Virus record (IMG/VR): IMGVR_UViG_3300042880_000852
Source of the DNA: a virus
Length of the DNA: 64,000 nucleotides
Direction: 5' to 3' (one strand)
The position numbers were made by a program, and so were the translations under genes. Positions 1,785-63,930 of this stretch are shown here, piece after piece. Below the pieces are notes generated by a model. That model ran no database searches. It was given only the letters and a program-made list of their open reading frames with translations, and had not been told where the DNA came from. Numbering within the stretch: position 1 is the stretch's first letter; each line of letters begins with the position of its first letter.

Positions 1785-2288
1785 TTAATTTTGAATTAAT
1801 CTATAAGTTTTAATTAAGCTAAAATCAACCAAGGTTACTGATTCAACTTTAATACCCCAGTCTTCAACCATTACTTTTGATTTTTCTGTAATTAATGTAT
1901 CTAACTTTGTGGCATCACCCCATGTAAAATCTTCTATTACATTTTTAATTACGCCTTGTACAGTATCAACCAATACATCTCTTGCGCTATTAACCGAAAT
2001 TAAATATTTCTTTGGGTCCTCAATCTTATAACGGATAATGCCCTTTAATACAATATTCTTGTTATCCTTGGTGGTTAAAGTTTGTGATAATAAATCAACC
2101 GTTTGTGGCACGGTATGAACAACCCAAAACTGATCAATAAATGGGATTTTAAAATTTAATCCAGGTTGGGTGGATTTTAAAAACTTGCCAGCTCTCATAT
2201 GAATGCCACCTTCCCATTCATTAATAATTCTAACGGGTATTACCTCGTCTTTTAAATTTAAAACAAAATCAATTAACTTATCAAACAT
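1785..2288 (-). CDS. SPFH/band-7 (stomatin/prohibitin-like) domain protein
   Basis: PGLNFKIPFIDQ...TKDN..I.L...I.YKI.DP.KY pattern typical of the SPFH domain; TATATTTG (2293-2300, minus) just upstream of the ATG. Confidence 0.55.
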   Translation of the reverse strand: MFDKLIDFVLNLKDEVIPVRIINEWEGGIHMRAGKFLKSTQPGLNFKIPFIDQFWVVHTVPQTVDLLSQTLTTKDNKNIVLKGIIRYKIEDPKKYLISVNSARDVLVDTVQGVIKNVIEDFTWGDATKLDTLITEKSKVMVEDWGIKVESVTLVDFSLIKTYRLIQN

Positions 2289-25073: not shown

Positions 25074-26504
25074 ATGTCAACTTTATTATTAGAAAACAAA
25101 TATCTCATAACTGAATCTGGTATCAGAGATATAAACAAATTAGCACAACGTTATGATAACGCTAAAATATACTTCCACCAAGACTTAGATGGTGTAACCA
25201 CCGCTATTGCAATGAAAAACTACCTTGAACAAAATGGTATCAAAGTTGTTGAAACAGAAGTTATACAGTATGGTGATAAAGAATTTAGTATTAAAAAACC
25301 AATGGCAAGAGGTGATATAATGCCGGTTTTGGTTGACTTTGCACACGGTAAACCAATGTTTGTTATTCATACTGATCATCACGATAAACAGGTTGGTGCT
25401 GAAAAAGGAGCGTCAACATCTTTTAGACAATCACGTTCAAACGTTGAAACTATTTCACAAATAGTTTCCCCAAAAGAAATATTCCCATACTTAGATGTTT
25501 TAATGATTTCTACTGTTGATAGTGCGGATTATGCTAAAATGGGTATTACCCCTGAACAAGTTATGAACTATGTGTTTGTTTTGGATAAGGAAAAAAGTCT
25601 TGAAAAGAATAAAAAGATGATGGCCCTTGTAACTAACAAATTATTGTTAGCTTATAAAAACAAACCTAAATTTTTAGAAAGGCTGGTTATGGAATCTTCC
25701 GCATCCCTTTTAAGTATATATCAAAATATAGTTAGATTAGCAAAAGAAGAAGGTTATACTTCACCTGAAGTAATGACACAACACGCTAAGGAATACGCTG
25801 AATCAATGAAGACTAGTAAAAATGTATCATATGACCCTACAACTGGTATTATTTCACAGTATGGTGGTGGTTACATGGTAAAACCTGGTTCTTATGATAG
25901 ATACGTACCTTTTAAAAACTTTCCTGAGGCTAATTTCTTAATTATAGCATGGCCTTTAGGTTTACTACAAGCTAGTTGTAACCCATTTAAGGCTGAAAGA
26001 AGTCTTAAAGGTGTTAATTTGGGTGAAATAGCTCAAGAAGTTTTAGTCAAATTTAAACCACAATTAGAACAGTTTGAAATTACTGTTGATACAATCAAAT
26101 ATTTTGCTGAAAAACACAAAGATTTTAGTCAAGAATCAGTTGGTTTTACCTATAATGACCTTATGGCAATTTATGGTCAGACAGAAGGTGGTATCACTGG
26201 TTTAAATACGGTACCCGAAGGTGCTAAAGAAGGTTACACGGTTGAAAGGTGGAGGGAAGCTATTAAAAAAGTTATGGATAAACCTTATACAAGTTTGGGT
26301 GAGAAAGAAATTAAAGCCTTAAAAATGTTAAAAGTTTCGGGGTGGGATATCATTCAAGCTAATAGTGGTGGTCACAAGTGTATAACCAATATTTCAGGTC
26401 TTATGTATTTTGGAAAACAAGGTGTACCTTATCTTAAAGAATTTCAAGCTGAGTTTGAAAAAGAACTTAGAACAAAAATATTAACAAACAATCAAACAAA
26501 ATAA
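25074..26504 (+). CDS. DHH-family phosphoesterase
   Basis: DHH motifs: I HQDLDGV, II VLVDFAHG, III HTDHHD. Confidence 0.65.
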   Translation: MSTLLLENKYLITESGIRDINKLAQRYDNAKIYFHQDLDGVTTAIAMKNYLEQNGIKVVETEVIQYGDKEFSIKKPMARGDIMPVLVDFAHGKPMFVIHTDHHDKQVGAEKGASTSFRQSRSNVETISQIVSPKEIFPYLDVLMISTVDSADYAKMGITPEQVMNYVFVLDKEKSLEKNKKMMALVTNKLLLAYKNKPKFLERLVMESSASLLSIYQNIVRLAKEEGYTSPEVMTQHAKEYAESMKTSKNVSYDPTTGIISQYGGGYMVKPGSYDRYVPFKNFPEANFLIIAWPLGLLQASCNPFKAERSLKGVNLGEIAQEVLVKFKPQLEQFEITVDTIKYFAEKHKDFSQESVGFTYNDLMAIYGQTEGGITGLNTVPEGAKEGYTVERWREAIKKVMDKPYTSLGEKEIKALKMLKVSGWDIIQANSGGHKCITNISGLMYFGKQGVPYLKEFQAEFEKELRTKILTNNQTK

Positions 26505-27201: not shown

Positions 27202-29718
27202 TTACTTACCTTTATCTTCCTTTTTTTTAGAATTTTTAGGTTTTTTGATATCAACTTTAACATCTTCAATTTTGGTATTGTAAGAAATTGTGATTGTATC
27301 ACCAATACTAAGTTCACCCTCGAGTACTTTTTCAGAAATTGGGTCTTCTACGTACTTTTGGATTGCTCTATTTAAAGGACGTGCTCCATATTTTTCGTCA
27401 TAACCTTTTTCAACCAAATACTCTTTTAAAGTATCTTCAATTTTAAGGACATAACCCATTTCTTTAACACGACCAACTACTTCACTTAAAGGAATATCGA
27501 CAATTCTCTTAATATTTTCTTTGTCAAGTGATTTGAAAACAATAACATCGTCGATACGATTTAAAAATTCAGGTGAAAAGGCCTTCTTTAATGAATCTTG
27601 TATCACACCTTCAGCTATTTCATCGTGAGCATTATTTTTAGATTGAGTACCAAAACCCACACCAGTTCCAAACTCTTGAAGTTTACGAGCTCCTACGTTT
27701 GAAGTCATAATGATAAGACAGTTTTTAAAATCAACTTTACGACCTAAACCATCACTTAAATGACCATCATCAAATACTTGAAGTAAAACATTAAAAACAT
27801 CTGGATGTGCTTTTTCAACTTCATCTAAAAGAATTACCGAAAATGGTTTTCTTCTAATTTTTTCAGTCAACTGACCACCTTCTTCATACCCAACATAACC
27901 TGGAGGAGCCCCGATTAATTTAGATACCGTGTGTTTTTCCATATACTCAGACATGTCAACACGAATTAAAGATTCAGGAGAACCAAAAATACTTTCAGCT
28001 AACATTTTAGCTAAGTGAGTTTTACCTACACCTGTTGGACCTAGAAACATAAAAGAACCTATCGGTTTCTTTTGGTTTTTAATACCTACACGATTACGTT
28101 TAATTGCTTTAGTAATTTTATCGATAGCATTATCTTGACCAATAACTTTAGTCTTAATTTCCTTATCCATGTTACGGAGTTTTTCATTTTCACTTTGTGA
28201 AACTTTAGTAACAGGAATACCTGTAACCATAGAAACAACTTTGGCAACATCATCTTCATTAACAGTAGGTCTTACTCTATCAAGATTTTTGGCCCACTCA
28301 TTAGTGGAATGTTCTAAATCATCTTGTAAATGTTTTTCTTCATCACGAAGTTTTGCTGCGTCTTCATAACGTTGTTGTTTTACAACTTCAATTTTTTGAC
28401 GACCTACTTCAGTTATTTTTTCTTCAAGGTCAATAATTTCTTGTGGGGGTTTAATATGAACTTGCATTCTAGCCCCAACCTCATCTAAAATATCTATAGC
28501 TTTATCAGGTTGTTCACGGTCACTAATATAACGGTCAGCTAAATTAACACAAGCCTCAATAGCTTCAGTTGTATAATTCACCTTGTGATGGTCTTCATAC
28601 TTATTCTTAATGTTGTTAAGAATTATAAGTGTTTCATCTTTAGAAGGTGGATCAACCACTACCATTTGAAAACGTCTAGCCAAAGCTCCATCTTTTTCAA
28701 TATTCTCACGATATTCGTCAAGGGTTGTTGCCCCAATACATTGAACTTCTCCACGAGCCAAAGCTGGTTTTAAAATATTAGAAGCGTCTAGAGAACCTGA
28801 AGCATTACCCGCTCCAACCATTGTGTGAATTTCATCAATAAAAAGAATAACATCATCGGCTTTTTCAAGTTCTTGCATGATACCTTTCATTCTTTCTTCA
28901 AATTGACCCCGATATTTGGTTCCAGCAACTAAAGATGCTAAATCCAAACTTACAACACGTTTGTCAAAAAGAATACGAGGACATTTCCTCTCAACAATTT
29001 TAAGAGCTAACCCCTCAACGATTGCGGTTTTACCCACACCAGGTTCACCAATAAGAATTGGATTGTTCTTTTTACGTCTTGAAAGAATTTGTGACACTCT
29101 CTCAATCTCATCTTCCCTTCCAATAATTGGGTCTATCTGACCTTCAGAGGCAAGTTTTGTAATGTCTCGACCAAAATTGTCAAGTACTGGGGTTGTTGAT
29201 TTACCTTGAGCAGCTTTTTTAGCTTTTTTACCCAAGTCGTCGATTTCTTCAAAGTCTCCTGTCATATTCATTATTTTTTGTTTCTTTAAATGTAATAAAG
29301 TTTCTTTAAAAGTTCTATAGGTAATACCCTGATTTCCTAAAACTTTTGTACCGTCTAACGATTTATTTTTTAAAATAGATAAAAACAAATGTTCCACACC
29401 AATAGAATCATCACGTAATTTATCAGATTCAAGTTCAGCGGAACTGATAGCGTTTTTTGATGACTCACTAAAAGGTACTATTTTTAGTTCTACAATATTA
29501 GGATTTTTTATTTTAAATCTCAAGTAACCTTCTAATTTTTCCATCAAATCGTCAACATCAGAACCCATGGCCTCTAACACCTCAATTACTTGATTATCAT
29601 CAAGGTTTAAAATAGAAAGTAATAGATGTTCGGGTTTTATTTTGTTTTCACCAAATCTTACTGATTCTTTAAAAGCCTCTTTCATTATAGCTTTTAAATT
29701 AGGCGTCATTTTTTTCAT
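27202..29718 (-). CDS. ClpC/ClpA-like double-ring AAA+ unfoldase (Clp ATPase)
   Basis: Clp N-domain repeats; Walker A in AAA-1 GEPGVGKTA and in AAA-2 GPTGVGKT; sensor motifs; short UVR-like linker; start chosen at MKKMTPNL (29718). Confidence 0.85.
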   Translation of the reverse strand: MKKMTPNLKAIMKEAFKESVRFGENKIKPEHLLLSILNLDDNQVIEVLEAMGSDVDDLMEKLEGYLRFKIKNPNIVELKIVPFSESSKNAISSAELESDKLRDDSIGVEHLFLSILKNKSLDGTKVLGNQGITYRTFKETLLHLKKQKIMNMTGDFEEIDDLGKKAKKAAQGKSTTPVLDNFGRDITKLASEGQIDPIIGREDEIERVSQILSRRKKNNPILIGEPGVGKTAIVEGLALKIVERKCPRILFDKRVVSLDLASLVAGTKYRGQFEERMKGIMQELEKADDVILFIDEIHTMVGAGNASGSLDASNILKPALARGEVQCIGATTLDEYRENIEKDGALARRFQMVVVDPPSKDETLIILNNIKNKYEDHHKVNYTTEAIEACVNLADRYISDREQPDKAIDILDEVGARMQVHIKPPQEIIDLEEKITEVGRQKIEVVKQQRYEDAAKLRDEEKHLQDDLEHSTNEWAKNLDRVRPTVNEDDVAKVVSMVTGIPVTKVSQSENEKLRNMDKEIKTKVIGQDNAIDKITKAIKRNRVGIKNQKKPIGSFMFLGPTGVGKTHLAKMLAESIFGSPESLIRVDMSEYMEKHTVSKLIGAPPGYVGYEEGGQLTEKIRRKPFSVILLDEVEKAHPDVFNVLLQVFDDGHLSDGLGRKVDFKNCLIIMTSNVGARKLQEFGTGVGFGTQSKNNAHDEIAEGVIQDSLKKAFSPEFLNRIDDVIVFKSLDKENIKRIVDIPLSEVVGRVKEMGYVLKIEDTLKEYLVEKGYDEKYGARPLNRAIQKYVEDPISEKVLEGELSIGDTITISYNTKIEDVKVDIKKPKNSKKKEDKGK

Positions 29719-30340: not shown

Positions 30341-30517
30341 AGATATCTTAGAAAATGGAACAAGAAAAAATGGATGAAAAATACTTAGAAGATAACATGG
30401 ATATGATATTTGGTACTGAATGTATAAACGGTAGTTTTAGTGTAAATCTTCGTAAAAAATTAGAAAATAATGTAGTAGAAAAAGATGATAGAACATATTT
30501 ATCTAATAAAGAAAAAT

Positions 30518-31261
30518 ATGGTAATATACAAGACTACAAATTTGGTGAATGATAAAATCTATATCGGACAAGACAAAAACAATAACCCAAATTATTTAGG
30601 TTCTGGTAAAAAATTAAAAAGAGCTATTAAAAAATACGGTAAAAATAATTTTTTAAAAGAGGTTATTGAAATTTGTGATAGTGAAGAGTTACTAAATGAA
30701 AGGGAGATTTTTTGGATATCTTATTATAAATCAACAGATAGAAAAACAGGTTATAACATAAGTGACGGTAGTAAAGAAGGTGATAGAAGATTAGGGTATA
30801 ATTCTCTTATAAAAAAAGGTAGGTATAAAACTTGGTTAGAAAAATACGGTAAAGAGGAGGCTGATAGAAAACATCATGAATGGAAACAAAAAATATCCGA
30901 TTATCAAAAAATAAAAATGTTAAATGGTTGGTCTCACACTGAAGAGGTTAGAAAAAAAATCTCAGAAGCACAAAAAGGTAAAATTCTTACTCAAGAAACA
31001 AGAGATAAGATGAGAAAACCAAAACCAAATGGGTTTTCAGAAACCATATCAAAAATTAAAAAAGGTGTGCCTTTAGGACCTTCAAAAAGAAGAAAACCGG
31101 TTGACCAATTTGATTTAAAATGGAATTATATTAAAACTTGGGAGAGTATAAGTAAAGTTGAACAAGAGTTGAGAATTTATAACATAAACGCGGTCTGTAA
31201 AGATAAACAAGATACTGCCGGTGGGTATAGATGGAAATATAGTATAAAAGAAAATGAATAA
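30518..31261 (+). CDS. GIY-YIG homing endonuclease (Seg/I-TevI-like) with NUMOD3-like repeats
   Basis: VIYKTTNLVNDKIYIGQD...YLGSG..L..AI.KYG GIY-YIG motif; C-terminal GWSHTEEVRKKISEAQKGK NUMOD3 repeats; overlaps the thyA start. Confidence 0.7.
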   Translation: MVIYKTTNLVNDKIYIGQDKNNNPNYLGSGKKLKRAIKKYGKNNFLKEVIEICDSEELLNEREIFWISYYKSTDRKTGYNISDGSKEGDRRLGYNSLIKKGRYKTWLEKYGKEEADRKHHEWKQKISDYQKIKMLNGWSHTEEVRKKISEAQKGKILTQETRDKMRKPKPNGFSETISKIKKGVPLGPSKRRKPVDQFDLKWNYIKTWESISKVEQELRIYNINAVCKDKQDTAGGYRWKYSIKENE

Positions 31262-32498
31262 ATTAGATTTAGATTACCAAAACCTATTAAGAGATATATT
31301 AGAGAATGGTACAAAAAAAGAAACTAGAAATGGTGGCACTATCTCAGTATTTGGAAGACAACTCCGACATGATTTTCGGGACGGATTTCCTCTACTCACC
31401 ACCAAGCGAATGGCTTTTAAAGCGATTGTCACCGAGTTATTATGGTTTCTTAGAGGAGACACAAACATCAAATACTTAGTTGACAACAATTGTCATATTT
31501 GGGATGGTGATGCTTATAAGAACTTTGAAAAGAGATATTATAAAGAGATTTTTAATTATGAAACGGGTTCTCATAATAGATTAATGAGTTTAGATGAATT
31601 CATACTCAATATCAAAACAAATGATGAGTTTGCTAATAAGTGGGGTGATTTAGGTCCAATTTATGGTAAGCAATGGAGAAGTTGGGAAGGTGTAATAAAA
31701 AAACAATTAACATCTATAAGCTATGAAATGAATTGGGGTAGTCTTGACCAAATCACAAACCTAATCAATGACCTTAAAACAAATCCAGACTCAAGACGAT
31801 TAATGGTTAATGCTTGGAATGTAGGTGAATTAGACCAAATGGTACTTCCACCTTGTCATTATGGATTTCAAGTTTATACAAGAGAGTTGAGTTTAGAAGA
31901 GAGAAAACAAATCTTCGATGACAGAGGCTATGTTTGTGATTTATGGCCTTTTAATGGTGATTGGCACGGTGAGTATGATGGTTTTGGAATACCTAGTAGA
32001 GCAATCTCATTAATGTGGAATCAACGTTCAGTAGATACATTCTTAGGTTTACCATTCAACATTGCTTCTTATGGATTGTTATTAGAGATAATCGCTAAAG
32101 CAGTCAACATGATTCCTGATGAATTGATTGGTAATTTAGGTGATGTACATTTATATTCAAATCATGTTGAACAAGCTAAGGAACAGATTGGTAGAGATTA
32201 TTCAGTTGGAGAAAGATTAGAATTTTTATCTGAAAAAAAACCTGACTTTAATCCTGAAACCGCTTTTGGTATTACAAAACACATTGATAGTTATTGTCAT
32301 TATGTTATTGACGATTACAGTATTCCTAGAAGAACAAGGGAACCTTATCCACTACCTAAACTAAATATTAATTCAGGTAACGAAAATTGGCATCTATTAG
32401 ATATTGATGATATTATAAATTCTTTAGATAATGAACTAACTTTTAAATTAGAAAACTATCAATCACACCCTAAAATATCAGCACCTTTAAGTAATTAA
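31254..32498 (+). CDS. thyA: thymidylate synthase (ThyA) with lineage-specific insertions
   Basis: LWFL.GDTN, GDLGPIYGKQWR, DQIT..I..LK.NPDSRR..V.AWN, catalytic PPCH, DTFLGLPFNIASYGLL and HLYSNH motifs. Confidence 0.9.
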   Translation: MNKLDLDYQNLLRDILENGTKKETRNGGTISVFGRQLRHDFRDGFPLLTTKRMAFKAIVTELLWFLRGDTNIKYLVDNNCHIWDGDAYKNFEKRYYKEIFNYETGSHNRLMSLDEFILNIKTNDEFANKWGDLGPIYGKQWRSWEGVIKKQLTSISYEMNWGSLDQITNLINDLKTNPDSRRLMVNAWNVGELDQMVLPPCHYGFQVYTRELSLEERKQIFDDRGYVCDLWPFNGDWHGEYDGFGIPSRAISLMWNQRSVDTFLGLPFNIASYGLLLEIIAKAVNMIPDELIGNLGDVHLYSNHVEQAKEQIGRDYSVGERLEFLSEKKPDFNPETAFGITKHIDSYCHYVIDDYSIPRRTREPYPLPKLNINSGNENWHLLDIDDIINSLDNELTFKLENYQSHPKISAPLSN

Positions 32499-34605: not shown

Positions 34606-35427
34606 ATGAAAAAGGCTACACAAATAAAAGAAATTAGTAAAGTTACTAAAAGTGATAGGTATGTAGATTTAACAGGTTTTAAAATGCAAGATGATTTAAA
34701 TCCTAAAATTTGGGATAAAAATCAAAAATTACGTCCTGAAATTAGAAAAAACTTACTTAAAATTGCTGACGATTATATTGAAAGTTTAGAAATTGAAAAT
34801 CTTGACATTGATGACGTTACTTTTACAGGTAGTTTAGCGAATTATAATTGGTCACAATACTCTGATGTTGATTTACACATTCTTATTGATTATAAGGAAA
34901 TCCCTGTCGATGAGACCTTAGTTCAAGATTTTTTAAAATCTAAAAGTACGGCATGGAATCAAAATCATGATATAAAAATTTATGGTTATGATGTTGAACT
35001 TTACGTTCAGGATATATCAGAAGAACATGTTTCAACTGGTGTTTATTCCATTTTAAAAAATGAATGGATAGTACAACCTGAAAAAAAAGTTATCACTGTT
35101 GATGATAAAAACGTAAGGCTAAAAGCTAATCGTATAATGGATTCAATTGATGATTTATACGATGAAATGAAAAAATCAAAAAATTACGACGATGTTGTAA
35201 TTAAATCAGATAAAATAAAAGATAAAATTAAAAAAATGCGTCAAGCTGGTTTAGATGAGGCAGGTGAATTTTCAGTAGAAAACATGGTCTTTAAAGTATT
35301 AAGACGTAATGGTATGTTGGAAAGACTTTCTGATATCAAAACTGTGGCTTACGATAAATCTGTTACGTTAGAAAATAACAGATATTTATATAAAAAAATA
35401 TTAAAAAATGGCATGTCGTTGTTATAA
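34606..35427 (+). CDS. Pol-beta-superfamily nucleotidyltransferase
   Basis: GS-x(10)-DVD signature (FTGSLANYNWSQYSDVDLHIL) of minimal/CD-type nucleotidyltransferases. Confidence 0.5.
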   Translation: MKKATQIKEISKVTKSDRYVDLTGFKMQDDLNPKIWDKNQKLRPEIRKNLLKIADDYIESLEIENLDIDDVTFTGSLANYNWSQYSDVDLHILIDYKEIPVDETLVQDFLKSKSTAWNQNHDIKIYGYDVELYVQDISEEHVSTGVYSILKNEWIVQPEKKVITVDDKNVRLKANRIMDSIDDLYDEMKKSKNYDDVVIKSDKIKDKIKKMRQAGLDEAGEFSVENMVFKVLRRNGMLERLSDIKTVAYDKSVTLENNRYLYKKILKNGMSLL

Positions 35428-45771: not shown

Positions 45772-45819
45772 GACTTAAATAATGTTCTTGATATTTATAT
45801 ATCAAAAGAACGTTATATT

Positions 45820-47649: not shown

Positions 47650-47735
47650 TACATTCACATTTAAAGATAGATGGTTTACTTTTAGTATGAATATTTATTT
47701 CTAAATATAATATAACAAGGTTTGAAAATTAATTA

Positions 47736-49661
47736 ATGGCCGACAATAAAGATTTAACAGTATATCAGAAATTATTTTACCTTTTTGGTCAAAATAAAAA
47801 ACCTGAAAGAACTACCCCAAAATATAGTTTTGGTGACGGTGATTTAATCACCATGCAATCAAAACAAGATTACGATAAACAAAAATTAGAATTACAACAA
47901 AAAAGTTATCTTGAGTCGCAATGGCAAAGAGTAGATAATGAACTTTATCAAAAAGCTGTTTACTATGAGACCTCAAGAATTGCTTCATATATGGATTATG
48001 AGGCTATGGAATTTACACCTGAAATTTCTGCCGCTTTAGATATTATGGCAGAAGAATCTTGTACACCAAGTGAACAAGGTAAAGTACTTACCATACAATC
48101 AAACTCTAAAAGAGTTAAAAATGTTTTAGAAGATTTATTTTACAACGTAGTTGATATTCAAACTAATTTACCAATGTGGACTCGTAATACATGTAAGTAT
48201 GGTGATAATTTTGTTTTCTTAAAAATTGATAATAAAAGAGGTATTATAGGTTCTTCACAATTAACTAATATTGAAATAGAACGTAAAGAAGAGGGTATGT
48301 TTCCTACACAAAAAGAAGGTAACACAACACCTATGCAAGAACAAAAGAAAAAACAAGTTATATTTCATTGGCGTGAAAAGGCCATGGATTTTAACCCATG
48401 GGAGATTGCACATTTTCGTTTATTAGGTGATGATAGACGTTTACCTTACGGTACTTCGGTGTTGGAAAAGGCTAGACGTATTTGGAAACAAATGTTATTA
48501 TCTGAAGATGCGATGTTAGTTTATCGTGTTGTTAGAGCACCTGAAAGACGTGTATTTAAAATTTATGTCGGTAACATTGATGATAAAGATGTTGATGCTT
48601 ATGTACAAAAAGTAGCTAATAAATTTAAAAGACAACAAATTGTTGACCAAAAAACAGGACAGGTTGATTTACGTTACAACACATTAGCTGTAGATCAAGA
48701 TTATTTCGTTCCTGTTCGTGACCCTAACGCACCAAACCCAATAGATACTTTGGCGGGTGCTAGTAATTTAGATCAAATTGCTGACATTGAGTATATTCAA
48801 AAGAAATTATTAACAGCGCTTAGAGTACCTAAAGCATTTTTAGGTTTTGATGAATCTCCTGGTGACGGTAAAAATTTAGCTTTATTAGATATTCGTTTCG
48901 CTAGAACAATTAATAGAATTCAACAATCTATGATTCAAGAATTGAATAAATTAGCTATTATTCATTTATTTATTTTAGGGTTTACTGATGATTTAAATAA
49001 TTTTACTTTAAATCTTACTAACCCATCTACTCAGGGTGAAATGTTAAAAGTTGAACAATGGAAAGAAAAAGTTCTTCTTTATAAAGATTTAGTGACTCAA
49101 GTTGATGGTGGTATAGCTCCTTCATCACATACTTGGGCTAAGAAAAATATTTTTAATTGGACCGATGAGGAAATTAAAACCGACCTTGAACAACAAATGA
49201 TGGAGAGAGCTGCATCTAAAGAATTAGAAAACACACCTGAAGTTGTTAAGAAAACAGGTTTCTTTGATAGGGTTACTAAACTTTATGGTGAAATTGGTGG
49301 ACCTACTCCTGCAGCTGGAGCTGAAGGTGGTGGGGTTGAAGAAGGTGGAGCTGAAGCTGGCGGTGGATTTGGTGGCGGAGGAGGATTTGGTGGTGGTGGC
49401 CTTGAACTAGGTGGTGGTGAAGAAATTGGTGGTGGAGCTGAAGTTGGTGAAGAAGGTGGTGAAGAAGGTGGTGGGGCTGAAACCGGATTTGGTGAAAGTT
49501 TTCGTTATAAAGACAAATCAATTATCGATAAGTTATTAATGGAGGGTAGAAGAAAAAATGAGGATATTATGATGATGACCGAAGGAATTAAAAATTTAAT
49601 AGGTGAAGAAGAAGAAAATAGTGACAAAGATTTAGATGACTTTAATTTATTACAAGATTAA
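47736..49661 (+). CDS. portal protein (gp20-like) with Gly/Glu-rich low-complexity C-terminal insertion
   Basis: position after terL; loose similarity to the T4 gp20 N-terminal region; (G)n-E tract encoded at about 49300-49500. Confidence 0.65.
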   Translation: MADNKDLTVYQKLFYLFGQNKKPERTTPKYSFGDGDLITMQSKQDYDKQKLELQQKSYLESQWQRVDNELYQKAVYYETSRIASYMDYEAMEFTPEISAALDIMAEESCTPSEQGKVLTIQSNSKRVKNVLEDLFYNVVDIQTNLPMWTRNTCKYGDNFVFLKIDNKRGIIGSSQLTNIEIERKEEGMFPTQKEGNTTPMQEQKKKQVIFHWREKAMDFNPWEIAHFRLLGDDRRLPYGTSVLEKARRIWKQMLLSEDAMLVYRVVRAPERRVFKIYVGNIDDKDVDAYVQKVANKFKRQQIVDQKTGQVDLRYNTLAVDQDYFVPVRDPNAPNPIDTLAGASNLDQIADIEYIQKKLLTALRVPKAFLGFDESPGDGKNLALLDIRFARTINRIQQSMIQELNKLAIIHLFILGFTDDLNNFTLNLTNPSTQGEMLKVEQWKEKVLLYKDLVTQVDGGIAPSSHTWAKKNIFNWTDEEIKTDLEQQMMERAASKELENTPEVVKKTGFFDRVTKLYGEIGGPTPAAGAEGGGVEEGGAEAGGGFGGGGGFGGGGLELGGGEEIGGGAEVGEEGGEEGGGAETGFGESFRYKDKSIIDKLLMEGRRKNEDIMMMTEGIKNLIGEEEENSDKDLDDFNLLQD

Positions 49662-51168: not shown

Positions 51169-52320
51169 ATGAGTAAAGTTTTTTTAGAATACATTTGGTT
51201 AGATGGTAATAGTCCCCAAAATCTAAGAAGTAAAACAAAAGTTGTTGACAGTACAGATATACTTGAAAGAGATGGTAATTCTAAACAAGGTTACCCTGAA
51301 TCCTATCCACTTTGGAGTTTCGATGGCAGTTCAACAAAACAAGCCGGTGAGGAATTTGGTTTTGATGGTACTGATTGTGTTTTAAAACCTGTCTGTGTTG
51401 TTAGTGACCCTTTTAGAAGTAAAAGTTCATCTTACCTTCACAAATTAGTTTTTTGTGAGGTTTTTAACCCTGACGGTAAAACACCACATAAAACAAACAC
51501 AAGAAGTAAGTTAAGGGATTTATTAGCCGACCTTAAATTCAAAGAGTATGACGCAAATCATTCAGAAGTTCCTTGGTTTGGGTGGGAACAAGAATACGTT
51601 ATAACACACGCTCCAGACCCGAATAACCATTTTAGGTATGGTGGAGGATTTCCTTTAGGTTTTTTAGCCGGTGATTCAGGTAAACCAAGACCACAAGGTG
51701 ATTACTACTGTGGTGTCGGTGGACTTAACGTTATTGGTAGAGACATTGTAGAAGAACATCTTACAAAATGTGCAGAAATAGGGTTAGATATAGGTGGAAT
51801 TAATGCCGAGGTATTGATAGGTCAATGGGAATATCAAATAGGCCCTGTGACTGCTTTAAACGGTTCTGACCAATTATGGATTTCACGTTACATACTTGAA
51901 AGAGTTGCTGAGAAAAAAGGTTTAGGAATTTCTTATCACCCAAAACCTGTTAACGGTGATTGGAATGGTAGTGGTTGTCACGTAAACTTTTCAACCAAAG
52001 AAATGAGAGAAAAAGGTGGAATTAAAAAAATTCTTGAATCATGTGATAAATTGTCTGAAAGACATAAAGAACATATTGAAGTTTACGGTGAGTTTAATGA
52101 AAAACGTTTAACTGGTAAACACGAAACATCTAGTATGGAAAAATTTAGTTTTGGTAATTCTGATAGAGGTTCAAGTATTAGAATACCTGTACATACATAT
52201 ACCAACGAAAGGGGTTATTTCGAAGATAGAAGGCCAGCGGCTAACTGTGACCCATACAAAGTTTCTAACGTAATGATTGAAACAGTATTTGATAAGGCTG
52301 GAATAACAGTGGAACAATAA
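51169..52320 (+). CDS. glnA: glutamine synthetase, type II-like
   Basis: N-terminal EYIWLDG beta-grasp motif; about 380 aa, typical of GS-II; catalytic-domain conservation (WFGWEQEY, GPCH-like region). Confidence 0.7.
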   Translation: MSKVFLEYIWLDGNSPQNLRSKTKVVDSTDILERDGNSKQGYPESYPLWSFDGSSTKQAGEEFGFDGTDCVLKPVCVVSDPFRSKSSSYLHKLVFCEVFNPDGKTPHKTNTRSKLRDLLADLKFKEYDANHSEVPWFGWEQEYVITHAPDPNNHFRYGGGFPLGFLAGDSGKPRPQGDYYCGVGGLNVIGRDIVEEHLTKCAEIGLDIGGINAEVLIGQWEYQIGPVTALNGSDQLWISRYILERVAEKKGLGISYHPKPVNGDWNGSGCHVNFSTKEMREKGGIKKILESCDKLSERHKEHIEVYGEFNEKRLTGKHETSSMEKFSFGNSDRGSSIRIPVHTYTNERGYFEDRRPAANCDPYKVSNVMIETVFDKAGITVEQ

Positions 52321-52759: not shown

Positions 52760-52788
52760 AAAAAACCCCGAATAATCGGGGTTTTTTA
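52759..52788. terminator. bidirectional intrinsic terminator
   Basis: aaaaaaa-ccccga-ataa-tcgggg-tttttt between convergent genes. Confidence 0.6.
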
Positions 52789-52790
52789 TT

Positions 52791-53429
52791 TTAAGCCTTT
52801 GGGGACTTAAGTTGGAGTTGTGGTTCCACTTCGGCTAACAAAGTTGTAACGTTTACACCTTTATCTTTTGCCACCTTATAGATACTGTCAATCAAACCTT
52901 TTTTAACAGAGTACTTAGTTACACCTACAATAAGGGTTTCTTTATCCTTATCAGATATTTTATCACAAGTTTCAATTAACTCAGAGATAACTTCTTGGTT
53001 ACGTTCAAGAACTTCGTTGTTAAACTTAAACTCAGTAGCCTCGTCAACGATATCTTCACCGTAAGTTTCTTTAAGGTAATTGGCTCTTTCTTCGTTGATA
53101 GATTTGTACTTATCTTGAACAACCACCATTACTGATGCACCTTGTTCGGAAGCCATAATGAATGAAGACTCACGTTTACCTGTACGCTCAATTAAATTAG
53201 AAAATTCAGACATACCCAATTCACGAACATAACCATCAGCGTCTTTGATTTCAGCCTCAAGCTTGTCAATTTGTTCTTTAAGGGTTGCTAACTTCACCAA
53301 TTTAGCGTGGAATTCTGCCATTTCAACAGGTGATTCAAACGCTGGTATAACGTGTGATTTGTCTTTTGATTTTGCAGTCTTAGTGTCTGTAGATTTTGCT
53401 TTCGCCTTGTTGAAAAGATTTGATGCCAT
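52791..53429 (-). CDS. hypothetical protein
   Basis: 212-aa ORF, Lys/Glu-rich. Confidence 0.45.
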   Translation of the reverse strand: MASNLFNKAKAKSTDTKTAKSKDKSHVIPAFESPVEMAEFHAKLVKLATLKEQIDKLEAEIKDADGYVRELGMSEFSNLIERTGKRESSFIMASEQGASVMVVVQDKYKSINEERANYLKETYGEDIVDEATEFKFNNEVLERNQEVISELIETCDKISDKDKETLIVGVTKYSVKKGLIDSIYKVAKDKGVNVTTLLAEVEPQLQLKSPKA

Positions 53430-53494: not shown

Positions 53495-55027
53495 TTAAAT
53501 AGAAATTTCTTCTACTTTTCCTTCAACTTCAAAAGGATATATTGGAGACCATTCTGTAATATCGTTTGACATTACGGGTTTACCACCTTCCATTCTATTA
53601 ACAGCAATTGTAATATGTGGGATTTTATTTTGTGTTTTAATTTCGGATTCCACCTTAACAGCCACAACTTTGTCTGTTTGTCCTATATGAGTTACTAATA
53701 AATCAAAGGGTTGGTCTAAAAGAGGTTTAGACTCTTCTTTAAGTGGGCCCATATTGATGGTCATGTGATGCCCAATAAATTCCCAATCTTTTGGGTGCGG
53801 AATATATTTTTTTAATAGTTTTCTTGATTCTTCATTAAGAATTACGCCTGAATAACTTACCTTTTTTTTAGATTCATTCATAAGTTTTAAAAATTTTTCT
53901 TTTTCTATTCTTTCTTTTTCTTGGCCAATTTCACGACCTTTAAAACCTTTTTTTATTAGGTCATCACCTGAAGTTGTTATTTTATATTCTAAAAAAGTGT
54001 CTACAATTTTATTAGGTATTTTCATTAAGTTACTAAATGTTCTTAGTGTTTCTTCAGATATCCCGATAACTTCAAATCTTTCACGTAATTTATAAACATC
54101 TGTCCCGTATTGTAAAAACTTAATTAAGAAACTGATTTCTTTTACTTCATCAACTGTATACTTAAGCTTGTTAACTAATGTTTTTTCAACCAATGTAGGC
54201 TCGTTACTTTGTAGTAAAACAGCTATAAGTACGTTAGCCTCTTTAGTCTCAATTAAAGGTTCTGTTGTAACTACAAGTCTACCAAATATCCAGTCCCAAA
54301 GATTGTACTTAGTTATTAATTGTGTAAAATACCCTACAGACTGTGCTTGTTTAATACCTTTAAGAAATTCATCTCTAATACGTTCTTGTGATATTGGAAG
54401 TCCGTTACCACTAATAGTGGTTTTATCTTTACTTATAGCACTTTCAATGTCTTTATCCACATCGGAACCAACACGGGCGGCAAATCTAAGTGCTCTAAGT
54501 ACACGTAGTTTATCCTCATCGAAACGCTCTACTGCTGAACCAACTGTTCTAACCACGTTTCTTTCAATGTCACCAATACCACCAACCAAGTCAACCACTT
54601 CACCTTTATCTATATCATAGAAAAGAGCGTTGATGGTTAAATCACGACGCTTAACATCTTGGTCAATTGTAGTAAACTCTACAGAGTCAGGTCGTCTACC
54701 TTTACCAATGTCTTTACGGAAAGTAGCTATTTCATATTGACCATCTTCCGTGACTACGTTAACAATCCCAAATTGTTCACCCAATTCAATTGTACGGTAC
54801 ATGTTTAGAATAGACTTAATTTCTTCGGGTTTAGCGTTAGTAGCTAAATCAAAATCTTTAGGTTCATTACCATAAAGTAAATCCCGCACAGCACCACCAA
54901 CAACATATAACTCATAACCGTTTTCCTTGAAAATTTGGTTCATTTTCAATACGGAATTAGGTAGGTCCATGTGTATTTTCTTTCTTACCACTTCTTCTTT
55001 TAAGATTTTTCGAATCAGGTTCTTCAT
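53495..55027 (-). CDS. tRNA nucleotidyltransferase (CCA-adding / class II poly(A) polymerase head) fused to a C-terminal 2H phosphoesterase (LigT-like) domain; N-terminal leader MKNLIRKILKEE
   Basis: LYVVGGAVRDLL...DFDLAT head motif and RRDLTINAL; C-terminal paired H-x-T-x motifs GHHMTI and PHITIA typical of 2H phosphoesterases. Confidence 0.75.
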   Translation of the reverse strand: MKNLIRKILKEEVVRKKIHMDLPNSVLKMNQIFKENGYELYVVGGAVRDLLYGNEPKDFDLATNAKPEEIKSILNMYRTIELGEQFGIVNVVTEDGQYEIATFRKDIGKGRRPDSVEFTTIDQDVKRRDLTINALFYDIDKGEVVDLVGGIGDIERNVVRTVGSAVERFDEDKLRVLRALRFAARVGSDVDKDIESAISKDKTTISGNGLPISQERIRDEFLKGIKQAQSVGYFTQLITKYNLWDWIFGRLVVTTEPLIETKEANVLIAVLLQSNEPTLVEKTLVNKLKYTVDEVKEISFLIKFLQYGTDVYKLRERFEVIGISEETLRTFSNLMKIPNKIVDTFLEYKITTSGDDLIKKGFKGREIGQEKERIEKEKFLKLMNESKKKVSYSGVILNEESRKLLKKYIPHPKDWEFIGHHMTINMGPLKEESKPLLDQPFDLLVTHIGQTDKVVAVKVESEIKTQNKIPHITIAVNRMEGGKPVMSNDITEWSPIYPFEVEGKVEEISI

Positions 55028-55082
55028 ATAATGTAAATATATGAATTTATTGCATATTTATATAGAAAAACTTTTTATAAAA

Positions 55083-55868
55083 ATGAAAATTTTAAAATCT
55101 AACGAAACAGGTAAAGGTATCTTAGTCGAATATGACGCGGGTTATATTTCACCTGATATATCGTATAAAGGTACAAAAAATGCTGATTTAATTCGTGAAT
55201 TTAAATCAGGTACAAATATAGGAAAAGACGGTAGTCTACCAGACGTAGTTATTGTTTACGCAGTACTTCAAAAATGGGGTATTGAAAATAAAAACGGAAG
55301 ATTATACCCAAAAGAAATTCTTGAAAGAGAAAATACTAGATACCAAGAATATATTAAAATGGGTACATCTCTTGGTGAGTTAAACCACCCTGAATCTTCC
55401 ATCATTGATGCAGACAGAGTATCTCACAGAATTACTAAAACTTGGTGGGATGGTAAAACACTTATGGGTGAGATGGAATTGGATACAACTCCAGGATATC
55501 ACAAGTTAGGTGTTATTTCTTCGGTTGGTGATAAAGTTGTTAACATGATTAGAAAAGGTTGGACTGTTGGTATTTCATCTCGTGGTGTTGGATCACTTAA
55601 AGTTGAAAACGGTAAAAACGTAGTACAAGATGACTTTGAATTAATTTGTTGGGATATTGTAACATCTCCGTCAACCCCAGGTTCTTGGATTTCAACTGAC
55701 GCTGGTGATTTAAAAACATTTACAGAATCAACCCAAGGTTGTAACGGTTACTCTTGTCAATGGAACCTAATTGAAGAGGCCCCTAAAAAAGAAACTGTAA
55801 GTTTCAAAGATATCACTAACCATAATAGTGATAAATTATTAAACAGTTTAAATAAATTTTTAAAATGA
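55083..55868 (+). CDS. prohead protease (T4 gp21-like), putative
   Basis: LGELNHP...VSH...W.DG..L.G and ISSRGVGS region consistent with the prohead serine protease fold; head-module position; alternative start at 55041. Confidence 0.5.
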   Translation: MKILKSNETGKGILVEYDAGYISPDISYKGTKNADLIREFKSGTNIGKDGSLPDVVIVYAVLQKWGIENKNGRLYPKEILERENTRYQEYIKMGTSLGELNHPESSIIDADRVSHRITKTWWDGKTLMGEMELDTTPGYHKLGVISSVGDKVVNMIRKGWTVGISSRGVGSLKVENGKNVVQDDFELICWDIVTSPSTPGSWISTDAGDLKTFTESTQGCNGYSCQWNLIEEAPKKETVSFKDITNHNSDKLLNSLNKFLK

Positions 55869-56288: not shown

Positions 56289-56522
56289 ATGGATAATAAT
56301 GTAGCAAAATACTTTTTAGTAAAAGTAGAATTTGAAACCATTAATGAAAGTAATGGTAAACAGAAAAAAATTAGAACACAATATCTTGTGGATGCAATGA
56401 CTTGTACTGAGGCTGAAGCTCGTACTCGTACTTATTTAAAAGATTCTGTAATGGATTATGAAATTGTAAGTACAACAAAAAGTCCTATTGAAGACGTTAT
56501 TGAAGTACTTGTAAAGGCTTAA
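56289..56522 (+). CDS. hypothetical protein
   Basis: 77-aa ORF. Confidence 0.4.
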   Translation: MDNNVAKYFLVKVEFETINESNGKQKKIRTQYLVDAMTCTEAEARTRTYLKDSVMDYEIVSTTKSPIEDVIEVLVKA

Positions 56523-56998
56523 TGACGATATTGTTTTGGTAAACCTACTTTGTTAGCAACCTTTTGGAAAACCCCACCATGGTTTCTAGCTTCAGTATCT
56601 TCCAATCCGTGAGCGGCATGAATTAATTCGTGTTTAATAATATCTTCAACGTATTCAGTATCATTAAGGGCCTTGGGATGAATCTTCATTATTCCAAGGT
56701 CTTTTTTATTTTCAGGATGTTTAAATGAACCTATCTTTCCGGCTTTAATTTTATCATCCACTTTAACAACAATGTTATCGTCACTAACAGGTTCTTCACC
56801 TGTAATTTCTTTATAAGCTTTTTCTACCTTTTTTTTAATACGGTCCTTCATGTTGTCAACTTTTTTAGTTTCTTTTGGAAACTTGGAATTCTTTGTTGCC
56901 TTTTCCTGAGCATAGTCAACTTTTCTCATAAAATCATTCGATTCTAAATGATCCTCAATAAATTCTCGTAATATTTTTCTGATATTATTTCTCATCAT
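56519..56998 (-). CDS. SprT-like HExxH zinc-metallopeptidase-domain protein with N-terminal leader (MMRNNIRKILRE)
   Basis: HELIHAAHG...HGGVF motif; start chosen at the in-frame ATG 56998. Confidence 0.5.
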   Translation of the reverse strand: MMRNNIRKILREFIEDHLESNDFMRKVDYAQEKATKNSKFPKETKKVDNMKDRIKKKVEKAYKEITGEEPVSDDNIVVKVDDKIKAGKIGSFKHPENKKDLGIMKIHPKALNDTEYVEDIIKHELIHAAHGLEDTEARNHGGVFQKVANKVGLPKQYRH

Positions 56999-60611: not shown

Positions 60612-61544
60612 ATGGGAAAGAAAAGAATTGAAATACCTGAAGATGTTTTATTAGAAATGGTAAGATTATATAATGAAGAATATGTTGGTACCCCATCATT
60701 GTCAGATAGATTTGGTTACCATAAATCTATTATATTAAGAAGTTTTAAAAACAAAGGTGTTGTCTTAGGTCCATCTGGTCGTAAATGGACTGGTGGTAGA
60801 GAGATTGCTGATAAAAAATGGAGAGAAAAAAATAAAGAAAAATTATCCGAATATCATAAAGAATGGTCAGAAAAAAACCGAGAATATTTACGTGAATATC
60901 ATGCCAAATGGCGTGAAGTAAATCGTGAATCATTAAACGAATATAAAAGACATTACGAAAAAACCAAAAAAGATTCTGACCCAGCTTATAAATTGGCTTG
61001 TTACACCAGAACTGCCATCTATACTTGTTTAAAAGAAAGAAATGTTGATAAATATAAAAATACTTTTGATTTATTACCTTATACGTTGGAAGAGCTGATT
61101 CAACATTTGGAACTTAGATTTCAAGAAGGTATGTCGTGGGATAATTATGGAAGATGGCATGTTGATCACATTAAACCAATGGTTTCTTTTAATATTAAAG
61201 AACCGACTGATAAAGAATTTCAAGATTGTTGGTCTTTAAGTAATTTACAACCATTATGGGAACAAGATAATTTATCCAAAGGTGGTAGATATTTATATTA
61301 TATGCCAAAGAACTATATACCATACGATCTAGCCTTAAAATTGAATGAAAAGGGTTATAATGTATCCACTCATGCTTATTATAACATCTATAATAAACAT
61401 ATATTTATTCACACACCTGTCAATCATAATGAAGCTATATGGGCACCAACTTTTGGTGAGACTATTGATTGGTTCAAAGAAAATTACGATATTGATGTAC
61501 AACCAAATGTAGAATCTATTGAAGAGGCTTTGAATAAAATATGA
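60612..61544 (+). CDS. HNH homing endonuclease
   Basis: HVDHIKP...NLQPLWEQDNLSKG HNH motif; Lys/Glu/Tyr-rich repeat region; classic position after the capsid gene. Confidence 0.6.
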   Translation: MGKKRIEIPEDVLLEMVRLYNEEYVGTPSLSDRFGYHKSIILRSFKNKGVVLGPSGRKWTGGREIADKKWREKNKEKLSEYHKEWSEKNREYLREYHAKWREVNRESLNEYKRHYEKTKKDSDPAYKLACYTRTAIYTCLKERNVDKYKNTFDLLPYTLEELIQHLELRFQEGMSWDNYGRWHVDHIKPMVSFNIKEPTDKEFQDCWSLSNLQPLWEQDNLSKGGRYLYYMPKNYIPYDLALKLNEKGYNVSTHAYYNIYNKHIFIHTPVNHNEAIWAPTFGETIDWFKENYDIDVQPNVESIEEALNKI

Positions 61545-61858
61545 AAGATTTAATTCTTAAAATACTAAAAGAATCGGAAGATGAATTTGATTGGATTGAG
61601 TCACCTTTCGGTATTGACGATAATCTAATGAACTATCTAATCCAAAATTACCGTGTTGGGGAATATAATGACATGGCAAAAGAGTTCTTAGGTGATAAAT
61701 ACGTGATGGTTGATGATAAAATGTATCCACTTGAAGGCCATAAAAAACAATTAACTAATAAAATCTATTGGGAGGTTGTTGATGAATTTCCTAACATGAA
61801 CCAACCTGTTTTAAGAAGAACAATTAAAACTTTTTTAAACAATATCACTAGTAACTAA
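61541..61858 (+). CDS. hypothetical protein with N-terminal leader (MKDLILKILKESEDEFDW); paralog of 63544..63930
   Basis: N-terminus nearly identical to MKHLIRKILKESDFDW of ORF 63544(-). Confidence 0.45.
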   Translation: MKDLILKILKESEDEFDWIESPFGIDDNLMNYLIQNYRVGEYNDMAKEFLGDKYVMVDDKMYPLEGHKKQLTNKIYWEVVDEFPNMNQPVLRRTIKTFLNNITSN

Positions 61859-63543: not shown

Positions 63544-63930
63544 TTATGAGTATGGTGGTCCTGGATTAGAACCCCTTACTTTAATATTTTCCGGATCAAA
63601 TACGTTAAATCTTTTCCAAGCGTATGGGTTTATTGACATTTTTAAGTAATCTAAAGCCCAATCGATATCATCACCTTCTTGAAATGACATACCTCGCCAA
63701 CGTGTAATGTCTCCGATGGCGTTTCTAATATTTTGTTTACTCGGATTTCTTTTTATATTTTCGATTGCATTACCTATCTCATCATCTTCTTGATAGGCAT
63801 AACCCTTCCATTCTTCAAACCCTTTAATACCGTCTTCAACCCAAGGCCAATAAACATTGTTAGGTAAACCCAATTCGTCAACCCAATCAAAATCACTTTC
63901 TTTTAATATTTTTCTAATTAAATGTTTCAT
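63544..63930 (-). CDS. hypothetical protein with N-terminal leader (MKHLIRKILKESDFDW)
   Basis: leader family member; paralog of ORF 61541. Confidence 0.45.
   Translation of the reverse strand: MKHLIRKILKESDFDWVDELGLPNNVYWPWVEDGIKGFEEWKGYAYQEDDEIGNAIENIKRNPSKQNIRNAIGDITRWRGMSFQEGDDIDWALDYLKMSINPYAWKRFNVFDPENIKVRGSNPGPPYS

Follow-up and report, generated by a model that had tools for sequence, protein, structure and literature searches.

A putative phage RNA 3'-end repair enzyme that joins a class II nucleotidyltransferase to a compact 2H phosphoesterase

What would a phage gain from a single protein that carries a tRNA nucleotidyltransferase at one end and a putative cyclic-phosphate-opening domain at the other? 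This question is raised by a minus-strand gene in a 64,000-nucleotide stretch of IMG/VR virus record IMGVR_UViG_3300042880_000852, the whole of which is referred to here as the window. The original prediction, made from the DNA letters and their translations, was that the gene encodes a CCA-adding enzyme fused to a LigT-like 2H phosphoesterase, forming a single-polypeptide tRNA 3'-end repair enzyme that is possibly packaged in the virion. Our follow-up analyses favor the reading that its product is a bifunctional enzyme for the repair of RNA 3' ends, which would probably act by 2H-mediated healing of a 2',3'-cyclic phosphate (>p) followed by rebuilding of the CCA end.

53495..55027, minus strand: nucleotidyltransferase-2H fusion gene, a single open reading frame (ORF) of 510 residues in the ORF list, with its stop codon at 53495-53497

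The gene was indeed a single minus-strand ORF and every motif quoted for it was present, with GGAVRD...DFDLAT located at residues 44-63, RRDLTINAL at 127-135, GHHMTI at 419-424 and PHITIA at 470-475. The NCBI and ENA gene callers place the start of the fusion protein 19 codons later, at M20, which would give a protein of 491 residues. We took the start of the 510-residue ORF to be the real one because residues 1-19 are conserved at the peptide level in homologs of ~50% identity. Proteins 100% identical to the 510-residue fusion protein are encoded by 60 metagenomic contigs, and full-length, two-part homologs were found down to an identity of 44%. The window is AT-rich (GC 0.27-0.35), and its composition had no break at the fusion locus.

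The N-terminal half had been assigned as a class II tRNA nucleotidyltransferase, and this assignment was confirmed by matches in Pfam, PHROG and NCBIfam and by alignment to the CCA-adding enzymes 1miv and 6ibp. The Pfam match to PolyA_pol (E=8.6e-37, 126.7 bits against a gathering score of 23) spanned profile positions 1-126 of 126, and the match to phrog_2244, a tRNA nucleotidyltransferase family, extended over residues 37-391 (E=1.4e-55).

54548..54910, minus strand: class II nucleotidyltransferase head domain, residues 40-160 (Pfam PolyA_pol, PF01743)
54848..54898, minus strand: motif A, GGAVRDLLYGNEPKDFD, residues 44-60, with catalytic carboxylates D58 and D60, aligned to GGAVRDLLLGRPIGDVD of 1miv
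54626..54649, minus strand: motif B, RRDLTINA, residues 127-134, aligned to RRDFTMNA of 1miv
54503..54517, minus strand: motif D, EDKLR, residues 171-175, the nucleotide-selecting E/D-D-x-x-R motif, aligned to EDALR of 1miv
53876..54547, minus strand: helical neck/body/tail region and linker, residues 161-384 (phrog_2244, AlphaFold2)

The catalytic motifs were intact in the fusion protein and in its relatives. Across 21 full-length homologs motif A was invariant, as were R127, R128, D129, L130, T131, N133 and A134 of motif B and all five residues of motif D (E171, D172, K173, L174 and R175). The AlphaFold2 model was all-helical over residues 161-384, with a predicted local distance difference test score (pLDDT) of about 68-95 per 10-residue block. 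From these alignments we conclude that the N-terminal half is a predicted active class II nucleotidyltransferase.

The C-terminal domain of ~126 residues was more divergent from characterized proteins, and we refer to it as mini-2H.

53498..53875, minus strand: mini 2H phosphoesterase domain, residues 385-510, like the cyclic phosphodiesterase (CPD) domain of Trl1 and CNPase
53756..53770, minus strand: first H-x-T-x motif, HHMTI, residues 420-424, on predicted β-strand 421-425
53603..53620, minus strand: second H-x-T-x motif, PHITIA, residues 470-475, on predicted β-strand 471-476

Two H-x-T-x motifs had been taken as diagnostic of the 2H family. The motifs are present, but they are not diagnostic alone, as pairs of them within ~120 residues are not rare by chance; it is their conservation that makes them meaningful. 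Residues H421, T423, P470, H471 and T473 were invariant in the 21 full-length homologs, whose identity ranged down to 45%. In an alignment of the isolated domain with 83 homologs, H37, M38, H87, T89 and S103 were invariant and T39 was present in at least 90% (in this domain numbering H37, T39, H87 and T89 correspond to H421, T423, H471 and T473 of the full protein). When the isolated domain of 126-128 residues was searched against Pfam, it matched PF08302, the fungal tRNA ligase CPD of the 2H family, at 24.1 bits, above the gathering score of 23, in a match that covered only profile positions 138-218 of 250. The mini-2H thus appears as a marginal, divergent member of PF08302. Among the 83 homologs, 76 matched PF08302 at E<0.01, the best at 2e-7. 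The domain also matched phrog_36523, a family without an assigned function, and had more than 160 close homologs, mostly stand-alone proteins of 122-150 residues.

Structure prediction gave a confident 2H phosphoesterase fold for the domain. AlphaFold2 run on the 83-sequence alignment returned a pLDDT of 95.2 and a predicted template modeling score of 0.86, with both H-x-T motifs placed on predicted β-strands (domain residues 37-41 and 87-92). Foldseek matched the model to CNPase, goldfish RICH and the Candida Trl1 kinase-CPD structure 6u05, and its best matches in a viral library were the Trl1-like RNA ligases of giant viruses. The kinship of the mini-2H to these proteins is visible solely through Pfam and fold. 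On the evidence of the model and of PF08302, the C-terminal domain is predicted to belong to the Trl1-CPD/CNPase branch of the 2H phosphoesterases, as a very compact member, and not, as had been proposed, to the LigT branch.

If these two domains act on the same RNA end, their genes might be expected to travel together in other phages, and they do. Stand-alone mini-2H genes were found directly 3' of CCA-type nucleotidyltransferase genes, followed just downstream by a gene whose product matches Pfam HAD_SAK_1, the 'Swiss Army Knife RNA repair' HAD, and another stand-alone mini-2H gene was located 5 kb from an RNA ligase gene. The mini-2H is encoded by 399 viral-contig stretches, and neighborhoods were counted in 80 of them: within 6 kb of the mini-2H there was a CCA-type nucleotidyltransferase at 45 of the 80 viral loci and a HAD phosphatase at 40 of 80, always on the same strand. 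An exhaustive profile search expanded the mini-2H family to 2,921 clusters at 50% identity. Architectures were counted in the top 150 representatives, which comprised 81 stand-alone proteins, 42 in which one polypeptide also contains the nucleotidyltransferase, before or after the mini-2H, five triple fusions (2H-NTase-HAD or NTase-2H-HAD, where NTase is the nucleotidyltransferase) and two 2H-HAD fusions. Relatives of the window enzyme in the NTase-2H-HAD cassette also matched the tail domain tRNA_NucTran2_2.

The nucleotidyltransferase has other partners of a similar kind. Nucleotidyltransferases ~50% identical to the window enzyme are fused at their N-termini to cREC_REC (PF20274), which Pfam names the 'cyclic-phosphate processing receiver domain', in proteins P0086, P0089, P0095, P0097 and P0099, and such fusions occur on metagenomic contigs of up to 538 kb. 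The cREC_REC and 2H fusions together imply that the same nucleotidyltransferase clade has been joined repeatedly to modules that handle cyclic phosphates. In two records (L046:1-6384 and L048; IMG/VR 3300025018_000187 and 3300008255_000293) a polyvalent-type protein of more than 2,100 residues contains an S-AdoMet lyase, an ART-PolyVal domain and a LigT/Acb1-like 2H, with a CCA-type nucleotidyltransferase and a mini-2H at its C-terminus and a SAK-type HAD gene directly downstream. In another (L004) an ART-PolyVal-nucleotidyltransferase fusion is followed by a mini-2H. Among cultured crAss-like phages, Bacteroides phage PhiCrAssBcn4 (L086, OQ221539.1: 95656-96063) encodes a mini-2H ~1.1 kb upstream of a TROVE (Ro60-like) gene, a pairing that hints at a cluster for RNA repair or quality control in phages of this kind.

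Related loci also provided information on how the fused gene is maintained. At one locus (L026) the nucleotidyltransferase and the 2H are neighboring, separate ORFs. At three others (L006:3762-6381, L009:3957-6420 and L010) a 224-residue GIY-YIG homing-endonuclease ORF interrupts the nucleotidyltransferase-2H gene after about residue 105, in the loop that separates motifs A and B, and both halves are intact with new terminal tails. The intact halves at these three loci suggest purifying selection, and the split gene possibly specifies a fragmented yet functional enzyme. A group I intron was considered in the split genes of L006 and L009, for which Rfam gave none; the lone match, a borderline rimP leader, was elsewhere in L009.

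The combination of the two domains had been described as unusual. This does not hold for metagenomes, where it is not rare, although it does hold for deposited phages: the fusion was absent among 50,697 deposited phage genomes, in which no tblastn match covered at least 80% of the protein. The mini-2H itself was present in 19 of the 50,697 genomes, annotated as 'hypothetical protein' in every case. The portion of Iyer et al. 2021 (PMC7824862) on which we drew presents 2H enzymes, SAK-type HADs and CCA-adding enzymes as separate RNA-repair parts of jumbo phages, and that portion describes neither a nucleotidyltransferase-2H fusion nor such a cassette. In the literature searched, which did not extend to the Burroughs and Aravind 2016 survey, there appears to be no description of this pairing of domains, of the minimal 2H family or of the NTase-2H-HAD cassette. 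The individual parts and the 'syntax' of the repair are already known, and to specialists this is the expected sort of domain shuffling.

How might these activities be combined? Both Trl1-CPD and CNPase open a 2',3'-cyclic phosphate to leave a 2'-phosphate/3'-OH end. We propose that a metal-independent ribonuclease, either a host toxin or a defense effector, would cut at or near the 3' end of a tRNA, the likely substrate judging from the nucleotidyltransferase family, and leave a 2',3'-cyclic phosphate that would block both aminoacylation and nucleotide addition. The mini-2H, through H421-x-T423 and H471-x-T473, would then hydrolyze the cyclic phosphate, and by analogy its product would be a 3'-OH/2'-phosphate end. 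Removal of the phosphomonoester would follow, in most of the related phages presumably by the adjacent or fused SAK-type HAD phosphatase, after which the class II nucleotidyltransferase would re-add C, C and A. The logic of >p removal followed by CCA rebuilding, put forward in the original prediction, gains strong support from the gene neighborhoods and from the independent fusions, while the CCA specificity that it also assumed is not settled by sequence. A counter-defense purpose for the pathway would be plausible.

The notion that one polypeptide performs the whole repair is less secure. The fusion is real, but it is probably not sufficient, as relatives mostly have a third enzyme, the SAK-type HAD phosphatase. 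A tblastn search found no HAD_SAK homolog in the 64-kb window, and no SAK-type HAD was present within 6 kb at the fused-lineage loci L006-L014, L020, L026 and L065. In addition, a DNA scan for the HAD pattern 'GWWGRPE', which demands the exact pattern and is consequently of limited sensitivity, found none on fused-lineage contigs, including one of 318 kb, among the 80 of 101 stretches listed. Because the phosphatase step has no assigned enzyme in the fused lineage, single-polypeptide repair is for now an overstatement. This step might instead be carried out by a phosphatase of the host or one encoded elsewhere in the genome, the nucleotidyltransferase might tolerate a 2'-phosphate, or the regiochemistry of the 2H product might depart from the analogy.

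The gaps in the phosphatase step weigh against the proposed repair function, and several other observations do so as well. There were no tRNA or tmRNA genes in the window, in which no Rfam family was matched, and none of the 20 larger ORFs checked in the window encoded an RNA ligase or a polynucleotide kinase, the one ligase being an ATP-dependent DNA ligase. We know of no cognate host nuclease. The match to PF08302 fell to 19.6 bits, under the gathering score, when the full-length protein was searched, and PDB sequence searches with the domain (phmmer) or with the 83-sequence profile returned chance matches only and no 2H protein. That the two histidines face one another across a cleft is inferred. 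Lastly, the nucleotidyltransferase reached neither NCBIfam equivalog cut-off, scoring 193 bits against 290 for PRK13299 (CCA tRNA nucleotidyltransferase) and 185 bits against 306 for pcnB (TIGR01942), which leaves room for a poly(A)- or A-adding specificity.

Two other ORFs in the window could encode further RNA-end-processing enzymes: 34606-35427 (plus strand), with a weak match to an MTPAP-like Pol-beta-type nucleotidyltransferase palm (E=9e-4), and 25074-26504 (plus strand), with a weak match to a DHH phosphoesterase (E=6e-4), both below the Pfam threshold. The ORF at 12504-13364 was considered as a HAD on account of the sequence 'FDWDDNIL', which resembles HAD motif I, and was dropped as it had no profile support.

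Among the other explanations, the one that survives best retains the same chemistry and assigns it to housekeeping, with the enzyme maturing or maintaining tRNAs (CCA-less ones of the phage, or those of the host) for late translation and the 2H domain clearing the occasional >p end. CCA-type nucleotidyltransferases are common in large phages, where they are annotated plainly as tRNA nucleotidyltransferases, and the fusion gene is stably syntenic within a core head module, not in a variable defense island, and has an upstream motif in common with genes of the structural region (see below). However, no tRNA genes were found in the window, and the mini-2H/nucleotidyltransferase module also occurs inside polyvalent proteins alongside a SAM lyase, ART and Acb1-like 2H, which are typical counter-defense domains. 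Moreover, normal tRNA processing (RNase P/Z and exonuclease chemistry) leaves no such cyclic-phosphate ends, and the coupling of the enzyme to a cyclic-phosphate opener and a phosphatase implies damage by metal-independent RNases instead. We consider a housekeeping role unlikely on this balance.

A slightly less likely explanation still is that the protein heals and tails RNA in general, as a poly(A) or oligo(A) polymerase that would add tails to mRNA or rRNA fragments unblocked by the 2H domain, thereby promoting their decay and the recycling of nucleotides. The best PDB sequence matches of the fusion protein were the CCA-adding enzymes 1miv (Geobacillus, 131 bits) and 6ibp (Planococcus, 125 bits), with E. 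coli poly(A) polymerase (PAP I) next and near to them in score at 118 bits; the pcnB and CCA models of NCBIfam differed by a similarly small amount, and Pfam gave a weak match to PolyA_pol_RNAbd. On the other hand, the loop between motifs A and B (RRPDSVEF / RRPxSVxF) is colinear with those of the CCA-adding enzymes, with only small gaps relative to 1miv and 6ibp, whereas E. coli PAP differs by three insertions there. This colinearity favors a CCA-adding enzyme over PAP and is supportive only. The PHROG families that span nearly the whole nucleotidyltransferase are annotated as tRNA nucleotidyltransferase, and the tRNA_NucTran2_2 tail domain of the same-cassette relatives also speaks against a tailing enzyme. 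Taken together, the specificity of the nucleotidyltransferase is probably CCA-adding. That the 2H domain instead acts against defense by degrading signals, such as cyclic oligonucleotides or 2'-5' oligoadenylate-like messengers (as for Acb1, ns2 and VP3), with its fusion to the nucleotidyltransferase being regulatory or unrelated, is very improbable, and Acb1 was not the closest structural or profile relative of the mini-2H.

With RNA 3'-end repair as the preferred reading, the fusion protein can be compared with systems of known function. E. coli-type Cca (NF008137, a family named 'multifunctional CCA addition/repair protein') likewise has a class II nucleotidyltransferase head and a phosphohydrolase that opens cyclic phosphates in one polypeptide, an arrangement in which the end is unblocked and CCA then rebuilt. 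In Cca the C-terminal domain is an HD domain, whereas the fusion protein has the unrelated, metal-independent 2H fold; the Pfam search found no HD domain in the fusion protein, and NF008137 matched only its residues 39-237 (86 bits against a cut-off of 451). The HD domain of E. coli Cca, whose activities were reportedly described by Yakunin and coworkers in 2004, is also a 2'-nucleotidase and a phosphatase, whereas the 2H CPDase of the fusion protein would be expected to stop at the monoester. The structural relatives of the mini-2H are the CPD of Trl1 (fungi, plants and giant viruses) and vertebrate CNPase. With its 126 residues the mini-2H has ~60% of the length of the CNPase catalytic domain (targets of 204-222 residues). 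The two histidines of the mini-2H are 50 residues apart, and its identity to Trl1 CPD and CNPase is 11-18%. Furthermore, the Trl1 CPD is coupled to a kinase and a ligase, and the mini-2H to a nucleotidyltransferase.

Phage T4 offers a precedent for the purpose of such an enzyme, as its Pnkp and Rnl1 reverse the damage done to tRNA-Lys by the host nuclease PrrC through healing of RNA ends. In T4 an anticodon-loop break is healed by the kinase/phosphatase and sealed by the ligase, whereas in the fusion system nucleotides would be added to the end, implying that the acceptor 3' end is where the damage lies. The cREC_REC-nucleotidyltransferase fusions of huge phages are a parallel solution, although cREC_REC is N-terminal and has an unrelated, receiver-like fold and the 2H of the window enzyme is C-terminal. 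By analogy, then, the fusion protein would work like E. coli Cca and serve a purpose like that of T4 Pnkp/Rnl1, while being a member of neither family.

If this reading is correct, a cyclic phosphodiesterase, a phosphatase and a CCA-adding enzyme would together constitute a widespread phage pathway for the tRNA acceptor end (~2,900 clusters at 50% identity), distinct from the T4 kinase/ligase route for anticodon-loop breaks. It would also mean that nucleases which cut at tRNA 3' ends to give cyclic phosphates are in common use among bacteria, probably Bacteroidetes in this case, which would provide a handle for the discovery of such effectors. A function would be predicted for a domain family that is annotated as hypothetical in all the deposited phages that carry it, crAss-like phages included. 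The mini-2H would in addition be a minimal 2H enzyme, at 126 residues, for structural and mechanistic study. As judged from sequence, the phage RNA-repair module is coherent and widespread and has a credible counter-defense role.

Is the enzyme also carried in the virion? The original prediction had noted a putative capsid-targeting leader on the fusion protein and raised the possibility of packaging.

54995..55027, minus strand: leader MKNLIRKILKE, residues 1-11, ending in L-K-E, which recurs on unrelated ORFs

The leader is present and recurrent as had been noted, while the evidence for targeting is circumstantial. A leader of the form MKxLIRKILKE (type A) occurs on four ORFs, at 54995-55027 (minus), 56966-56998 (minus), 63898-63930 (minus) and 61541-61573 (plus), and heads the fusion gene, an ORF for an SprT-like protein, g63544 and g61541. 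The related types B (VVRLNExDIExLVKKIIKE) and C (LLENRIDDVKKKYP) are found on about seven more ORFs, with leader-type ORF starts at 4998, 55865, 63068, 20407, 43000, 11109 and 17634, all on the plus strand, and eight of ten matches to a regular expression for the leader were at ORF N-termini. The type A copies differ at synonymous codon positions, which argues for selection on the leader peptide and ruled out a DNA-level repeat or recombination cassette. The leader extends beyond the N-terminus of the Geobacillus CCA enzyme, whose alignment begins at query residue 28, and its first 15 residues had an AlphaFold2 pLDDT of <50. Longer homologs have 'DFDW' domains inserted behind the leader, which keeps its place at the very start of the protein.

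These features fit the T4-type capsid-targeting format of a shared N-terminal peptide with an (L/I)-x-E end and a gp21-type S77 protease. The T4 capsid-targeting sequence (CTS) is MKTYQEFIAE. As with the leader, the T4 CTS is an N-terminal peptide on unrelated proteins (the internal proteins and Alt), and the fusion gene adjoins that of the protease; in sequence the window leader does not resemble the T4 CTS. For incorporation into the T4 head, the first 10 N-terminal residues are enough, and cleavage depends on positions 8 and 10 (PMC9026906). Speaking against targeting, most nucleotidyltransferase homologs, including stand-alone ones, carry a similar N-terminal helix, which is missing from a few full-length homologs, so that the leader could instead be a feature of the nucleotidyltransferase family or have another role.

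We therefore regard packaging of the fusion protein in the virion via its leader as doubtful. An extended version, to which we would give similarly little credence, is that the fusion protein, the SprT-like metalloprotease and several small proteins form a cargo set that is loaded via the leader, cleaved after L-x-E by the S77 protease and injected with the DNA. Hints of such a role may be seen in the conserved position of the fusion gene beside the protease gene, in the upstream motif common to the fusion gene, the portal gene and other structural-region genes, in the presence of module relatives within giant 'polyvalent' proteins bearing an Alt-like ART, and in the fixed location of the leader at the extreme N-terminus despite the inserted domains. 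Were this the case, the phage would bring a tRNA 3'-end repair enzyme ready-made, countering tRNA-end-targeting defenses before phage gene expression. The leader, if a capsid-targeting signal, would also be a useful tool, and RNA-repair enzymes would emerge as possible virion cargo.

The window derives from a T4-like myophage that is far from cultured phages, its best major capsid protein (MCP) matches being ~40% identical (Flavobacterium and Microcystis phages). As had been stated, the fusion gene lies inside the head module beside the protease gene; the module is T4-type, with profile matches to a gp20-type portal and a gp23-type MCP. Its order is portal (47736-49661), small ORFs, glutamine synthetase, fusion gene (minus strand) and S77 protease, followed by a small Zn-ribbon-like ORF, the SprT-like ORF (minus strand), an acidic scaffold-like protein and the gp23 MCP. 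This gene order is conserved in 11 related viral contigs, in which the fusion proteins are 51-81% identical and the portals 80-94%, and the adjacency of fusion and protease genes is kept in 10 related loci.

55083..55868, plus strand, divergent from the fusion gene: S77 (T4 gp21-like) prohead protease (PF03420, E=4e-28; phrog_207)
55028..55082, no strand: divergent intergenic region between the fusion gene and the likely protease start, containing ATATTTAC and TATTTATA
55033-55040, minus strand: ATATTTAC, 13 nt upstream of the fusion-gene ATG
55055-55062, plus strand: TATTTATA, upstream of the protease gene
52791..53429, minus strand: 212-residue ORF without profile matches, directly 3' of the fusion gene, with its own TAnnTTTG-type box in the 65-nt spacer
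52760..52787, minus strand: strong intrinsic terminator with a 12-bp stem and T-run, which ends the minus-strand unit

The fusion start is 13 nt from the longest protease ORF, while 55 nt separate it from 55083, where the protease probably begins. The longest protease ORF is probably over-extended at 55041-55082 (plus strand), as homologs begin with MKILK (ATG at 55083), and TATTTATA is inside this extension. Between the fusion gene and the 212-residue ORF downstream of it there was no terminator.

Two classes of upstream motif were recognized. The first, ATATTTAT (the ATATTTA motif), precedes 25 of 84 genes at a distance of 10-45 nt, among them those for the portal, other large structural-region proteins, the SprT-like protein and the fusion protein, with examples at 45791-45797, 47691-47697 and 55034-55040 (minus strand); the MCP and scaffold genes had no ATATTTAT within 60 nt. 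The second, TAnnTTTG, of the Bacteroidetes -7 box type, is upstream of about 14 genes, among them those for the DNA ligase, UvdE and g52791. These classes suggest a Bacteroidetes host and a phage-specific, possibly late, promoter class, and the fusion gene may be expressed at the same stage as the head genes. A T4 late promoter, TATAAATA, was considered upstream of the fusion gene and rejected, the real element there being ATATTTAT on the coding strand. At 55055-55062, TATAAATA represents the reverse complement of ATATTTAT and thus serves the divergent protease gene.

Two neighbors in the head module are of interest in their own right. A glutamine synthetase homolog of 383 residues (51169-52320, plus strand; Gln-synt_C, E=8e-18) lies between the portal and protease genes and keeps its head-module position in related phages at 58-89% identity. 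The SprT-like metalloprotease ORF (56519-56998, minus strand; PF10263, 26.1 bits, HExxH present), which bears a type A leader, lies between the protease and scaffold genes and is also conserved in related phages.

Elsewhere in the window there is an 838-residue ClpB/ClpC-like double-AAA+ chaperone (27202-29718, minus strand; Clp_N, AAA, AAA_2 and ClpB_D2-small) and an SPFH/Band-7 protein (1785-2288, minus strand; PF01145, E=8e-21). For some RNA-repair systems a scaffolding role of Band-7 modules has been proposed. At 30485-32498 (plus strand) a 258-residue GIY-YIG ORF is directly upstream of, and overlaps, a 414-residue thymidylate synthase, in which 321 residues are taken up by a Pfam ThyA match of 235 profile positions, a difference that points to an insertion.

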